A DNA stretch of 64,000 nucleotides, taken from NCBI GenBank assembly GCA_030765135.1, contig JAVCDC010000009.1, forward strand, positions 5,682 to 69,681, given 5' to 3'. This DNA is from Candidatus Tritonobacter lacicola. Its GTDB lineage: Bacteria > Auribacterota > Tritonobacteria > Tritonobacterales > Tritonobacteraceae. The position numbers were made by a program, and so were the translations under genes. Shown piece after piece: positions 25,929 through 28,191 of this stretch (positions are counted from its first letter, which is position 1; every line of letters starts with the position of its first letter). Under the pieces are notes generated by a model. The model did not search any database. It worked only from the letters and a program-made list of their open reading frames with translations, and was not told the origin of the DNA.

Positions 25929-26010
25929 GCCGGGCTGGTCGATACGAATACCTTGACTCTCTCCGGTTCGCCCGCTTGTGACAATAAACCAGTCACCGTA
26001 TCTCTCTTTG

Positions 26011-26083
26011 CGCGCCCAGCAGGACTCGAACCTGCAACCACCGGATTAGAAATCCGGTGCTCTATCCGTTGAGCTATGGGCGC
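26011..26083 (-). tRNA. tRNA-Arg (TCT)
   Basis: Reverse complement reads GCGCCCATAGCTCAACGGATAGAGCACCGGATTTCTAATCCGGTGGTTGCAGGTTCGAGTCCTGCTGGGCGCG. Anticodon stem CCGGA/TCCGG, loop TTTCTAA, anticodon TCT. Confidence 0.85.
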
Positions 26084-26138
26084 ATCCGGTTGGCCGGGCG
26101 GCTCGACCCACCCCCCTTTATAGACAGGAAAAGAGGCG

Positions 26139-26582
26139 TTATAGTTTAAGTAGCTTGCTAAGCTCCTGGTGCAGCCTCTTTATAGCCTTCTTGTTGGACC
26201 TCCATTCTTCAAGGTGAGCCATGACATACTCTTTGCCCGTACACAGGCTCTCCTGCTTGCCGAGAAGGTGTGATATCTGTTTGAGCAACAGAAGCGCCCT
26301 TCCGTATTCAGGGGGACATCCATGGAGATTTGCGAGCGCGTTATGCGCCTCCTGCCGTCGGTTGATCATATTGTCCACCAACTCCCCTGTCAGGGTATCC
26401 TGTAGAAGGCTGAGCTGGTATCGGCTGATCGAGCCCTCCCACGAAAAGACAACGTAGCGGGCTTGCTTGAACTGCTTTCTCCAGTTTTGCTTCACTTCCT
26501 GGGATTCGCAACGATGCCCAGCAGCAAGAACAGCCAGAAGCGGAACGAGCAAGAAAACTGGTGTTTTTGCCTTCACCATCAT
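26139..26582 (-). CDS. small secreted protein, paralog A (shared motifs WRKxxKxAR, GCPxxY, C-terminal LLKL)
   Basis: Signal peptide (MMVKAKTPVFLLVPLLAVLAAG). Shares an ordered set of motifs with the adjacent ORF (NWRKQFKQARY / QWRKKIKRARH; HGCPPEYGRALL / GGCPDDYKRDCE; identical ...LLKL end). Confidence 0.55.
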   Translation of the reverse strand: MMVKAKTPVFLLVPLLAVLAAGHRCESQEVKQNWRKQFKQARYVVFSWEGSISRYQLSLLQDTLTGELVDNMINRRQEAHNALANLHGCPPEYGRALLLLKQISHLLGKQESLCTGKEYVMAHLEEWRSNKKAIKRLHQELSKLLKL

Positions 26583-26612
26583 CGCGGATCCCCTCGGTTC
26601 ATCATTTTTCGG

Positions 26613-27050
26613 TTAAAGCTTAAGCAACCGCTCCAGTTCTTCAAACAACCCATCCACCTTTTTCTTGAGCTTCTTCTGTTCCTCGAGCTGATTGAAGGCC
26701 ACCTGCCTGTTCTCCGCCATGAGCTCCATCTTCCTCAGGATCTCGTGGATTTCGTTAATTATTTCGCAATCTCTTTTATAATCGTCGGGACATCCGCCGA
26801 TCTCGTTAATCGACTGGCGGGCGGCTATACTGCCGTTTATCAACCTGTCTCTTTCACTGGCATCCGGCCCCCCCCGAAAAAGCACCGCGTTGTAATAATT
26901 ATTCACGGCCGTGTTGAAAAGCAGCATGTGATGGCGCGCTCTCTTGATCTTCTTCCTCCACTGCATATCCCGAGCGCGTCCATCCGGCGTAAAGGCAAGC
27001 AAGGCCGACGAACAGATTATAAATAGAATTATTTTCCTGACACCGTGCAT
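26613..27050 (-). CDS. small secreted protein, paralog B of the upstream gene
   Basis: Signal peptide (MHGVRKIILFIICSSALLA). Same length class and motif order as paralog A. Confidence 0.55.
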   Translation of the reverse strand: MHGVRKIILFIICSSALLAFTPDGRARDMQWRKKIKRARHHMLLFNTAVNNYYNAVLFRGGPDASERDRLINGSIAARQSINEIGGCPDDYKRDCEIINEIHEILRKMELMAENRQVAFNQLEEQKKLKKKVDGLFEELERLLKL

Positions 27051-27325
27051 GATCCCAGCCCTTTTGAGAGTATTGTATCAACCGGTTGTGGATATTTACA
27101 ACTTATTGTTCTCCGTCTCTTCCAGTTCAGCCGGACGGCTCCGCATCTTCGCCAGTTCCTCGACGAGCCGCTTCTTTGTCTTCTCCTTGTCCCTCATCCT
27201 TCGATTGCCTCAAGAGCGGAAGGGATTTAAAAAGTACCGGAAACCATATTGATGGTCGCAATTACTGAACGCCACTCGAACTATCTTTGGCATAATTCAT
27301 TTTTGAATTTCAAAAATAGTTGATT

Positions 27326-27826
27326 TTATTTTGAGTCAATATAGTGGATTGCTTCGTCTATCACAGAAATATCCTTTATCTTAGAAGAAAAAATCTCACC
27401 TTTGATTTTTTCTATCTCGTCTATGCTTTCAACAATAAAATCTGAAAAGGTAAAGATGAACGGGTGAATCCAGTCCTCAACTAATTTTCCATGAAAGACC
27501 ACATTGGGACGCCTATGATGAGTATCTTTAGGAAGAATGGAAATAACCGGTTTATTAAAATACTTTGCAATAACGATTTCTTGGGCGGTTCCTACCCCAA
27601 GTATTTCTTCGGCGTTAACTATCACTAATGAACTATCTTTTATGTGTCTACAATCTTGGCCAACAACTGCTAAAAAATCACCTTCATCTAATTCTTTATG
27701 GTAGGGTTCGATGAAATCAGCTTCAAAAAATTTCTGCAGAAGTTGCTTGTATTTACTTCTCCAGTCATTAAATATTTTTGCTTCCGCGTCTCCTTTTGGG
27801 ACACTGCCTGCCAAATAAATTTTCAT
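27326..27826 (-). CDS. nucleoside 2-deoxyribosyltransferase-like (NDT/flavodoxin-like fold) protein
   Basis: N-terminal MKIYLAGS, and GVGTAQEIVIAKYFNKPVISI matching the NDT family core (D/S-GTxxExGxA...KPV). The gene and its flanks are conspicuously AT-rich compared with the rest of the window. Confidence 0.6.
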   Translation of the reverse strand: MKIYLAGSVPKGDAEAKIFNDWRSKYKQLLQKFFEADFIEPYHKELDEGDFLAVVGQDCRHIKDSSLVIVNAEEILGVGTAQEIVIAKYFNKPVISILPKDTHHRRPNVVFHGKLVEDWIHPFIFTFSDFIVESIDEIEKIKGEIFSSKIKDISVIDEAIHYIDSK

Positions 27827-27937
27827 AGTTTTTCTATTTTAACAAATCATCCCAAGGCAGTGCCGGATGCGGCTAAATCTGCCTTCGGCAGATTTGACGC
27901 AGAACCGCCCACCTTTCCCAACTTAAGTTCAAGAGTT

Positions 27938-28015
27938 GGTCGGGGCGCCGGGATTTGAACCCGGGGCCTCCTGCTCCCAAAGCAGGCGCGCTAAACCGGA
28001 CTGCGCCACGCCCCG
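27938..28015 (-). tRNA. tRNA-Pro (TGG)
   Basis: Reverse complement reads CGGGGCGTGGCGCAGTCCGGTTTAGCGCGCCTGCTTTGGGAGCAGGAGGCCCCGGGTTCAAATCCCGGCGCCCCGACCA. Anticodon loop TTTGGGA gives anticodon TGG; CCA is encoded. Confidence 0.8.
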
Positions 28016-28157
28016 ATTTTCTCCATACCATTAGGTTCTGCAATACTTTTTACTAATGAAACCGCCTTATTGCCCCCTCTTCACTTCGTTCATCGGGATC
28101 TAAGAATTTCATGGTATTTAGCTTCGCTACGCTCGCTAAATACCTGAACTTCTAAGA

Positions 28158-28191
28158 CGGACTGCGCCACGCCCCGATTTTCTCCATACCA
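28158..28191. repeat. 34-bp direct repeat of the tRNA-Pro 5' end plus upstream flank (second copy; first copy 27997..28030)
   Basis: CGGACTGCGCCACGCCCCGATTTTCTCCATACCA occurs identically at 27997..28030 and 28158..28191. Copy 1 spans the first ~19 nt of the tRNA (minus strand) plus 15 nt upstream. The ~127-bp spacer is AT-rich. Confidence 0.85.

Follow-up and report, generated by a model that had tools for sequence, protein, structure and literature searches.

Genes for tRNAs are usually regarded as constitutive, and partial tRNA copies found beside them are routinely taken as integration scars, an assumption on which island-finding tools depend. The attachment (att) repeats known from such sites comprise the anticodon-to-3' part of the tRNA and enclose kilobases of DNA that include an integrase; pSAM2, in a tRNA-Pro gene of Streptomyces, is an example of a tRNA-gene att site, and the sublocations within tRNA genes at which att sites lie are said to have been classified by Williams in 2002. 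Sequences related to tRNA also occur in regulatory leaders: T-box riboswitches and the thrS operator, a mimic of the tRNA-Thr anticodon arm, control aminoacyl-tRNA synthetase or amino-acid genes. The spacers of tRNA precursors can themselves give rise to functional RNAs, as seen for the E. coli 3'ETS-leuZ sponge and other tRNA- and ETS-derived sRNAs (PMC8166272).

Here we describe a tRNA-Pro gene of Candidatus Tritonobacter lacicola, located in a 64-kb stretch of DNA (hereafter the window), that is preceded by a copy of its own 5' end. The locus resembles a tRNA att site in having a direct repeat of a tRNA segment beside an intact tRNA; it differs in that the 5' 19 nt are repeated, that the copies bracket 127-142 nt of gene-free DNA, and that the arrangement has been kept in different species and at different loci, with covariation of the type found in RNA. 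Like the ETS-derived RNAs, it contains a conserved non-tRNA segment that would be freed by tRNA end processing, but this segment precedes the tRNA, extends over about 160 nt, is highly structured, and opens with a self-copy of the tRNA 5' end. With the T-box and thrS leaders it would share a cis-acting leader that contains or recognizes tRNA-like sequence, and helices that read as bearing GA motifs; in contrast to these systems, the downstream gene is a tRNA gene, Rfam gives no T-box match, and there is no specifier or antiterminator architecture. The best reading of the comparative data is that the unit, conserved in the Tritonobacter lineage of the Auribacterota, is a new structured tRNA-Pro leader RNA, and we put at roughly 60% the probability of this explanation. 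The repeat is not an integration scar; it would be a segment of the transcription unit of the tRNA itself that selection has kept. If so, the leader would be the first functional non-coding RNA candidate in the Auribacterota, a phylum that to our knowledge is known from metagenomes only.

The initial annotation had treated the interval of about 2 kb between two minus-strand tRNA genes as one islet carrying AT-rich cargo, and the 34-bp repeat at tRNA-Pro as the scar of its arrival. Its inventory of the locus is borne out: ARAGORN and Rfam find both tRNA genes, and the 34-mer CGGACTGCGCCACGCCCCGATTTTCTCCATACCA is present in exactly two copies in the window (27997-28030 and 28158-28191), with none expected from 100 shuffles. 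The repeat is made up of tRNA-Pro nt 1-19 and 15 nt of upstream flank, its match continues to 40 nt with two mismatches, and the 127-nt spacer between the copies (28031-28157) is indeed AT-rich, with a GC content of 0.40. The two further genes in the interval are tandem paralogs (29% identity between the ORFs, E 4e-12), and the GC content, which averages 0.567 in the window, falls to 0.34-0.35 between about 27250 and 27850. The stretch of 293 nt from the stop codon of a 249-aa gene to the end of tRNA-Pro is identical in nine further T. lacicola contigs, taken from JGI and ENA assemblies, and the repeat is therefore not an assembly artefact. The interpretation of the interval as an islet fares less well, and the features listed in Table 1 represent three unrelated things that adjoin: a tRNA-Pro leader unit, a pair of ancestral paralogs, and an imported AT-rich gene resembling nucleoside 2-deoxyribosyltransferase (NDT).

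Table 1. Features of the T. lacicola tRNA-Arg to tRNA-Pro region, in window coordinates. L012 is the locus of a syntenic relative and L014 a metagenome-assembled genome (MAG) with a GC content of 0.35.
Feature	Coordinates	Strand	Basis or remark
tRNA-Arg(UCU), tct anticodon	26010-26083	-	ARAGORN and Rfam
Paralog B, 147 aa	26139-26582	-	Ortholog at L012 8920-9363, 59% aa identity
Paralog A, 145 aa	26613-27050	-	Ortholog at L012 8366-8890, 63% aa identity
Horizontally acquired segment, 571 bp, with NDT-like CDS 27326-27826 (166 aa, GC 0.351)	27281-27851	-	Composition; match to L014
tRNA-Pro(UGG), intact, CCA end encoded	27937-28015	-	ARAGORN; Rfam tRNA, 67.9 bits
Linker, 55 nt	28016-28070	-	Unit positions 107-161; length fixed, sequence poorly conserved
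Hairpin 2, CCCGAUGAACGAAGUGAAGAGGG	28075-28097	-	Unit positions 80-102
Long imperfect hairpin, about 20 bp, GUCUUAGAAGUUCAGGUAUUUAGC...GCUAAAUACCAUGAAAUUCUUAGAU	28098-28158	-	Unit positions 19-79
5' self-copy ('mimic'), reproducing tRNA-Pro nt 1-19 exactly	28158-28176	-	Unit positions 1-19
15-nt flank, second copy, ahead of the self-copy, TGGTATGGAGAAAAT	28177-28191	-	T. lacicola-specific extension

Comparison with L012, where tRNA-Arg has the same position and is identical at 73 of 74 nt, separates the contents of the interval. Both paralogs are found there between tRNA-Pro and tRNA-Arg, and they are therefore ancestral and not cargo, so that the 2-kb interval does not form a single islet. 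The N-terminus of paralog A appears by eye to be signal-peptide-like, and the protein belongs to no Pfam or NCBIfam family; the NCBIfam search of the proteins of the locus gave nothing useful, and PADLOC returned no defence-system match among its four ORFs. The NDT-like gene, on the other hand, is missing from L012, where tRNA-Pro and paralog A are 64 nt apart, compared to 886 nt in the window. Its nearest relative is in L014 (84.8% nucleotide identity over 572 nt, 87% at the amino acid level); the tetranucleotide profiles of L014 and the window correlate at -0.17, and further homologs, at 80% identity or less, are labelled Patescibacteria. Genomes of the donor type have an XRE-HTH gene on one side of it and a 3-methyladenine DNA glycosylase gene on the other, and the segment in the window retains parts of both donor genes: the last six codons of the HTH gene upstream, and about 20 nt from the start of the glycosylase gene downstream. 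The foreign character that had been ascribed to the AT-rich segment is thus upheld, and these comparisons show the NDT-like gene to be a recent single-gene horizontal acquisition from a distant low-GC bacterium. The gene was excised from its HTH-NDT-glycosylase context and placed in the 64-nt spacer between tRNA-Pro and paralog A, presumably by illegitimate recombination; a tRNA 3'-end repeat or a target-site duplication was looked for around the insertion and none was found. It is a clean case of the transfer of a single gene into the Auribacterota, from a low-GC donor with relatives among the Patescibacteria, without mobile-element machinery.

The position of this segment bears directly on the proposal that the repeats are attL and attR sites left by the arrival of the AT-rich cargo, whether in an integrative island since decayed or in a 5'-end integration that was aborted. 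While a perfect 34-bp direct repeat is anchored on the tRNA and a truly foreign gene adjoins the same tRNA, the repeats enclose only 127 nt, and the foreign segment lies outside them, beyond the 3' end of the tRNA and unflanked by any copy of the tRNA 3' end. In agreement with the initial annotation, no integrase or other recombinase domain was found by Pfam in six neighbouring ORFs (encoding a TPR protein, the 249-aa protein, the NDT-like protein, the two paralogs and a 387-aa protein) drawn from those listed across 23.5-31 kb. The upstream copy and the spacer, with 160-161 nt spacing, are also present in the cargo-free relatives L012 and L018, at a second tRNA-Pro locus (L020 and L022), and in every T. 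lacicola contig examined; L012 refutes the att reading for the cargo, and relatives with both repeat copies are what the initial annotation had itself named as grounds for refutation. The repeat copies are older than the import and are sited on the other side of the tRNA. With the strong conservation and the compensatory changes described below, we regard delivery of the cargo through these repeats as very improbable.

The unit upstream of tRNA-Pro spans 160-161 nt and is built from the copied tRNA nt 1-19, a hairpin of 61 nt, the GA-rich hairpin 2 and the linker, directly followed by the intact tRNA. The self-copy takes in the 5' strands of the acceptor stem and the D-stem and a portion of the D-loop. 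The long hairpin is found by RNAalifold in agreement with single-sequence folds; hairpin 2, which by eye contains tandem G.A/A.G motifs, is the most widely conserved module of the unit. The final 15 nt of the linker (28016-28030) form the flank portion of the 34-bp repeat. These flanks are mismatched between the two copies in L012 and L022 and match partially in L020, so that the portion of the repeat specific to T. lacicola is the 15-nt flank only; this extension may have arisen by gene conversion acting locally between the copies. In the 64-kb window the covariance model of the unit (R1) gives a single hit, and tRNA-Pro is the only tRNA there that is preceded by a copy of its own 5' end. Two other readings of parts of the unit were considered and rejected: a decayed tRNA body at unit positions 20-79, where identity to tRNA-Pro by eye is about 33% and near chance, and a hammerhead-like CGAUGA...GAA element, whose bases are unconserved in L017 and L018 and which has no Rfam match.

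Including the window, there are five full copies of the unit, from three or four uncultured organisms. The self-copy, the motif TCTTAG and both hairpins are found 160-161 nt before the tRNA start in L012 and L018, upstream of tRNA-Pro(UGG), and in L020 and L022, upstream of tRNA-Pro(GGG), placing the unit at both isoacceptor genes in at least three lineages. The 19-mer is followed by TCTTAG in L012, L020 and L022, with two changes in L018. At a further locus, L017, hairpin 2 survives (30 bits with the covariance model) while the self-copy and the long hairpin are lost, and the self-copy is thus dispensable in at least one lineage. A metagenome pattern scan matched L020 and L018/L021 only, and L022 was reached through homologs of the MBL-fold neighbour of L020 in a search aimed at further GGG loci; four other loci with such homologs (L023-L026) are non-syntenic and have neither the tRNA nor the leader. 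In the GTDB species genomes the hairpin-2 pattern has no match, and of 101 pattern matches in a protein-guided scan based on the 249-aa family, none was confirmed; the lineage is therefore taken to be absent from that collection. Scans of IMG/VR with the hairpin-2 pattern and with the junction of self-copy and TCTTAG gave no matches in either case, BLAST in distant mode against phage and plasmid collections found nothing, and Rfam 15 (E ≤ 1) left the leader unmatched in the window (24-30 kb), L018, L020 and L022, with strong matches to the tRNAs only.

Consideration of the sequence identities among these copies indicates that the first part of the unit is held well above the neutral level of the adjoining sequence. 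The core of 106 nt is identical at 100 positions between the window and L012, and at 91-104 positions (86-98%) across all pairs. The flanking genes have third-codon-position identities of 48-54% and protein identities of 59-63%, the tRNA-Pro itself is identical at 72 of 79 positions, and the linker, whose length is 54-55 nt at all five loci, matches at 34-46 of 55 positions (62-84%). The UGG copy of L012 and the GGG copy of L022, which are in one assembly, share 104 of 106 core positions and only 35 of 55 linker positions, and the D-loop variant C16 of L018 is common to its self-copy and its tRNA. We count the L012/L022 core identity and the shared C16 as signs of concerted evolution of the unit copies.

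The predicted secondary structure is supported by the pattern of substitutions. Across the five sequences, 94% (94.1%) of the cells in the 27 proposed pairs are paired, compared to 23-52% when the partners are slid. Four of the 27 pairs are altered on both sides, a number equalled by one of 500 shuffles; these are few events, mostly in L018 and the window, and with five sequences the support from covariation is modest. All 20 pairs of the long hairpin form in every sequence, with compensatory changes at 35:62 and 40:57, while in hairpin 2 the pairs 85:97 and 88:94 are compensated in L018, and the G.A/A.G positions have become G-C/C-G in L017 and G-U/C-G in L018. The two strands are not equivalent: the tRNA strand contains seven G-U cells, from about three independent events, and no A.C cells, and the reverse strand pairs less well (88.9% vs 94.1%) because these seven G-U cells turn into A.C.

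These observations weigh against a functionless spacer. It could be proposed that the locus is the neutral remnant of an upstream tandem tRNA-Pro that lost nt 20-79, its 5' stump held identical solely through gene conversion with the adjacent tRNA and its spacer either functionless or a tandem promoter acting at the DNA level. Debris of tRNA-Pro is indeed seen in L020 (a 10-nt 5' piece, a 17-nt repeat of the 3' end and a piece of the D-arm), where TCTTAG also occurs directly 3' of a complete tRNA and suggests a former tandem array; the extensions of the flank in T. lacicola and L020 resemble conversion tracts, and by eye a -10-like motif precedes both copies. However, a neutral spacer cannot hold 86-98% identity where third codon positions are at about 50%, 19 nt are short for efficient conversion, and the compensatory changes and the strand bias of G-U pairs point to an RNA and not to a DNA operator. 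We therefore consider a purely neutral remnant unlikely, although the same scenario, taken as an account of origin, is compatible with a leader function.

A selfish element is about equally unlikely. The 161-bp unit might be a miniature, CIME-like integrative element that is excised as a circle by recombination of the 19-nt self-copy with the tRNA 5' end and re-inserted at any tRNA-Pro gene by a recombinase acting in trans, with the hairpins as recombinase binding sites; direct repeats at both bounds, the constant length of 160-161 nt and the presence at two isoacceptor loci that share their first 29 nt would fit this, as would a linker that ignores orthology (46/55 between the UGG copy of the window and the GGG copy of L022, and only 34/55 between the window and the orthologous UGG copy of L012). 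The divergence of linker and core within one assembly nevertheless implies that the unit has not evolved as a single block copied in the recent past. An empty site was not encountered, the nine other T. lacicola contigs being identical over the stretch; L017 has diverged gradually, without clean loss; no recombinase lies nearby; viral, phage and plasmid collections hold no match; and the G-U pairs favour an RNA of the tRNA strand.

Variable columns 70, 85, 88, 91, 94 and 97 coincide with third positions of a possible ORF of 14-19 codons, and the core could then encode a leader micropeptide of 14-19 aa, MKFLDPDERSEEGA..., with a single CCC proline codon, whose translation would couple the expression of tRNA-Pro to the decoding of proline. 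All five full copies contain an ORF that begins with ATG, and the changes at the third positions, which account for six of the eight variable columns, are mostly synonymous. The same columns are, however, explained by pairs 85:97 and 88:94 together with replacements of GA by GC. The ATG lies within the 3' strand of the long hairpin, has no Shine-Dalgarno-like sequence in the 14 nt before it, and is AAG/TTG in L017; the C-terminus and the position of the stop codon vary, there is a single proline codon and no terminator on which attenuation could act, and the most conserved part of the unit (positions 1-64) is upstream of the ORF. A coding function is, in our view, less probable still than a selfish or a neutral one.

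We favour a leader RNA, and propose that the unit is transcribed on the tRNA strand, to give either a structured leader 5' of the tRNA or a small RNA, from upstream of it, that would be freed at tRNA processing. The -10-like motifs TGnTATGGA and TATAGA can be read by eye near the leader; a scan of the minus strand around the leader with the sigma-70 consensus gave no promoter. When single-stranded, the self-copy could pair with the 3' acceptor strand and the D-stem 3' strand of the tRNA, displacing the genuine 5' strand, and the leader might in this way gate the folding and the 5' maturation of pre-tRNA-Pro. Forcing the self-copy onto the 3' strands of the tRNA gives a precursor whose stability exceeds that of the canonical fold by 3.7-6 kcal/mol at four of five loci, L020 being the exception, where the canonical fold is more stable; these are nearest-neighbour energies, which ignore tRNA tertiary structure. 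Competition between self-copy and tRNA is possible on thermodynamic grounds, as modelled. The more specific idea that the 19-nt self-copy is an intramolecular decoy ('anti-acceptor'), with folding and RNase P maturation hinging on how the long hairpin and hairpin 2 are bound or cleaved, is doubtful and is put forward tentatively. We know of no description of the principle of a riboregulatory switch built into a bacterial tRNA gene. If the leader acted as a folding or processing switch, or released a small RNA with the 5' sequence of the tRNA, it would represent a new type of cis-control for tRNA genes.

Finally, we considered the product of the imported gene, for which the NDT-like identity first suggested from its translation was confirmed by profile and fold searches. 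The protein matches Pfam PF05014 at 16.5 bits, under the gathering cut-off of 28.8 bits; of 24 homologs, 23 match the same family at E ≤ 0.01, the lowest E-value being 7.6e-7. Searching PDB sequences with a profile of the NDT-like family was uninformative, and a fold search was required. The AF2 model of the protein (pLDDT 93.5, pTM 0.88) was matched by Foldseek to 28 PDB entries at E ≤ 0.001, all of them NDT, DNPH1, MilB or BcmB, with a probability of 1.0 and TM-scores of 0.46-0.60. The 166-aa protein is thus predicted to adopt the Rossmann-like NDT fold; it shares this fold with the NDT/DNPH1/MilB-BcmB N-glycosidase superfamily, but is only 12-24% identical to the solved members. The motif GxGTxxE...KP is invariant in the family alignment, and E83, within GVGTAQE, is invariant across the 24 homologs; judged by the GTxxE motif, this residue may correspond to the catalytic glutamate nucleophile of NDT.

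Recomputation of the tRNA genes, the repeat, the GC content and the paralogy of the two intervening genes agrees with the initial annotation, whose description of a tRNA pair, a 34-bp repeat, an AT-rich segment and paralogous genes is therefore accurate. The 34-mer, which corresponds to tRNA-Pro nucleotides 1-19 and 15 nt of upstream flank, occurs in two perfect copies with no third in the window, against a chance expectation of 0; the match reaches 40 nt if two mismatches are allowed, and the 127-nt spacer has a GC content of 0.40. Windowed GC falls to 0.34-0.35 in the AT-rich segment, compared with a window mean of 0.567, and paralogs A and B are related to each other (29% identity, E 4e-12). 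Nine further same-species contigs from JGI and ENA assemblies are identical to the window over the 293 nt that run from the adjoining 249-aa gene's stop to the tRNA-Pro end.

Coordinates of features at the tRNA-Pro locus of the window
Feature	Position	Strand	Source
tRNA-Arg(UCU)	26010-26083	-	ARAGORN and Rfam
Paralog B	26139-26582		
Paralog A	26613-27050		
33-aa ORF	27096-27197	-	JGI gene call
GC trough	~27250-27850		
Segment with donor homology	27281-27851		
NDT-like gene	27326-27826	-	
Perfect 9-bp hairpin	27875-27895		
tRNA-Pro(UGG)	27937-28015	-	ARAGORN and Rfam
34-mer, copy in tRNA-Pro	27997-28030		
34-mer, upstream copy	28158-28191		

Candidatus Tritonobacter lacicola is a member of the Auribacterota described from Ace Lake, Antarctica (PMC9324843), and the protein of the AT-rich NDT-like gene is 99% identical to that of a MAG of this species. 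A search of 5.8 billion proteins gave only four homolog clusters for the 249-aa gene, on L012, a syntenic contig (~60% amino acid identity), and on the shorter contigs L017, L018 and L019 (48-54%); no relative of the lineage was found in the GTDB species genomes scanned. The gene order in L012 is ComM, TPR protein, 258-aa protein, tRNA-Pro(UGG), paralog A, paralog B, tRNA-Arg(UCU), 392-aa protein and fumarase, with paralogs A and B sharing 63% and 59% amino acid identity with those of the window. Their position between the same tRNAs indicates that the two paralogous genes are ancestral. The single islet of ~2 kb proposed between the tRNAs is thus not borne out, as L012 has both paralogs at the same place and lacks the NDT-like gene at the syntenic site; the gap from tRNA-Pro to paralog A is 64 nt in L012 versus 886 nt in the window. 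The 85 nt between tRNA-Pro and the AT-rich homologous segment have no counterpart in L012, and contain a hairpin (AAATCTGCC-(4 nt)-GGCAGATTT) ~42 nt downstream of tRNA-Pro without a T-run.

Comparison with donor-type contigs indicates that the NDT-like gene is a single-gene horizontal import. The segment shares 84.8% nucleotide identity over 572 nt with L014, a MAG of GC 0.35 whose tetranucleotide correlation with the window is -0.17, and 80.5% with L015 and L016; other close homologs of the protein carry the label Patescibacteria or, in one case, archaeon. Upstream in the donor is an XRE-HTH gene, within whose final six codons the homology starts; it stops ~20 nt into the 3-methyladenine glycosylase gene downstream, and these boundaries indicate that the piece was excised from an HTH-NDT-glycosylase context. 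Repeat searches and inspection of neighbouring ORFs found no tRNA 3'-end repeat, target duplication or recombinase with the segment, and for this reason it probably arrived by illegitimate recombination. The cargo is therefore foreign, as first supposed, and no integration scar accompanies it. The protein scores 16.5 bits against Pfam PF05014, below the cut-off, yet 23 of 24 homologs match that family; its AF2 model has a pLDDT of 93.5, and every Foldseek PDB match with E <= 0.001 is an NDT, DNPH1, MilB or BcmB, so that the protein is placed in the NDT/DNPH1 fold as a divergent representative.

In donor-type genomes (L014:5788-7112, L015:239-6519) the gene lies between the XRE-HTH and 3-methyladenine DNA glycosylase genes, with an Eco57I-type methyltransferase nearby in L014 and a tyrosine-integrase/ParB cluster ~5 kb away in L015. 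Judging from such neighbours, the gene may help to deal with modified or damaged nucleotides, and the donors may carry it on mobile DNA. Between the NDT-like gene and paralog A lies a coiled-coil-like 33-aa ORF, MRDKEKTKKRLVEELAKMRSRPAELEETENNKL, which may be a gene fragment.

L012 and L018 have, 5' of tRNA-Pro, a sequence that can be aligned with that of the window. Scanning metagenomes for the pattern revealed this unit again in L020, before another gene, tRNA-Pro(GGG), and it likewise lies upstream of tRNA-Pro(GGG) in L022, which shares one ENA assembly and similar coverage with L012. The unit opens with CGGGGCGTGGCGCAGTCCG (tRNA nucleotides 1-19, the self-copy) and TCTTAG; a long palindrome comes next, then a GA-rich stretch whose last bases are GGGGGCA, and a variable linker leads to the intact tRNA. 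The distance from self-copy start to tRNA start in the five loci is 161, 161, 160, 161 and 161 nt. The earlier reading of the repeat pair as the att scar of an integration that brought the AT-rich cargo is contradicted by the repeat geometry and by these four related loci, which carry self-copy and spacer, and we give it almost no weight. Copy-to-copy identity extends into the upstream flank only in T. lacicola and, in part, in L020, which is why the 34-mer is so conspicuous in the window.

Flanking genes of the window and L012 share 59-63% protein, 67-69% DNA and 48-54% third-codon-position identity (fumarase, 80% protein and 79% DNA). The 106-nt core of the unit is identical at 100/106 positions between the two and at 91-104/106 across all pairs, matching the conservation of tRNA-Pro (72/79), while the 55-nt linker keeps its length with identity of just 34-46/55. 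Because of this level of core conservation we set aside a neutral remnant as unlikely. With R1, a covariance model of the unit, a single copy is detected in the 64-kb window and none away from tRNA-Pro loci in the contigs compared; the upstream self-copy was not found at tRNA-His, tRNA-Leu or tRNA-Arg, and no Rfam 15 family matches the leader. The unit is probably a new, lineage-restricted structured tRNA-Pro leader whose first bases duplicate the 5' end of that tRNA, and a candidate new RNA motif known from few sequences.

Among the relatives at 48-54% identity, the sub-lineage of L017 (1975-2122) and L019 (1380-1431) has diverged in its tRNA-Pro leader: hairpin 2 persists, with a stem that is Watson-Crick throughout (CCCGCC/GGCGGG), and the self-copy and long hairpin have given way to unrelated sequence in which GTCTTAG still occurs.

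RNAalifold and single-sequence folds both predict two hairpins, an imperfect one of 61 nt at unit positions 19-79 and another at 80-102 (hairpin 2). The 27 predicted pairs are 94% paired in the five-sequence alignment, compared with 23-52% when partners are slid, and four (35:62, 40:57, 85:97, 88:94) show changes on both sides, which one of 500 shuffles attains. By eye, G28.A70 becomes A28.G70 in L020, and where hairpin 2 has tandem G.A/A.G, L017 has G-C/C-G and L018 has G-U/C-G. On the opposite strand the mirrored structure is paired less (88.9%), because seven G-U cells turn into A.C, a difference that speaks for an RNA on the tRNA strand. If the unit were a 161-bp mini-element mobilised in trans, its constant length and the linker similarity that does not follow orthology would be accounted for; this reading leaves the G-U bias and the core/linker contrast inside one genome unexplained, empty sites are absent in the loci examined, and we consider it improbable. 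Still less probable is that the core encodes a micropeptide (MKFLDPDERSEEGA...), which agrees with the third-position variation pattern, since no ribosome-binding site precedes the ORF, the hairpin encloses its start codon, and the ATG is lost in L017.

In predicted folds the self-copy is single-stranded. Being identical to tRNA nucleotides 1-19, it could take the place of the tRNA's own 5' strand in both the acceptor stem and the D stem, and forcing this pairing makes the 240-nt precursor 3.7-6 kcal/mol more stable than the canonical fold in four of five loci, L020 being the exception. On the basis of this stability we propose that the unit is a putative structured 5' leader, or a leader-derived RNA freed by RNase P, in which the self-copy would gate folding and maturation of pre-tRNA-Pro and the hairpins would serve as recognition modules for a protein or RNase. 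Our data demonstrate that the unit is conserved, structured and linked to tRNA-Pro, and that the proposed pairing is thermodynamically feasible; its transcription, its processing and any effect on tRNA-Pro are putative. A sigma-70 scan found no promoter at the leader, and -10-like TGnTATGGA/TATAGA motifs precede both copies by eye.

The Ace Lake tRNA-Pro(GGG) locus of L020 (3474-3890) has extra tRNA-Pro debris around the intact gene: a 10-nt tRNA 5' fragment followed by the palindrome TCCCGAAGGCCTTCGGGA, two copies 93 nt apart of a 17-nt tRNA 3'-end repeat (TCGCCCCGACCATCTTA), a D-arm piece (GTTTAGCGCG) immediately after ACCA-TCTTA, and a piece of hairpin 2 (AGATCCCGAT). The pieces resemble additional leader and tRNA units in decay, or the outcome of repeated recombination at the gene. 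This debris, the TCTTAG that also follows a complete tRNA in L020, and the lack of any of these pieces in orthologous L022 suggest an origin of the unit in a tandem array of tRNA-Pro genes, the upstream one having lost nucleotides 20-79. The UGG and GGG leaders of one assembly are identical at 104/106 positions, and in L018 the self-copy and tRNA share the D-loop variant C16; both point to concerted evolution between copies. Upstream of the GGG-locus leader, L020:3300-3470 and L022:1085-1200 are orthologous, and the next gene is an MBL-fold gene in L020 versus a beta-CASP gene in L022, whose MBL gene lies 3.7 kb off, which suggests a deletion or rearrangement beside this tRNA in one lineage.
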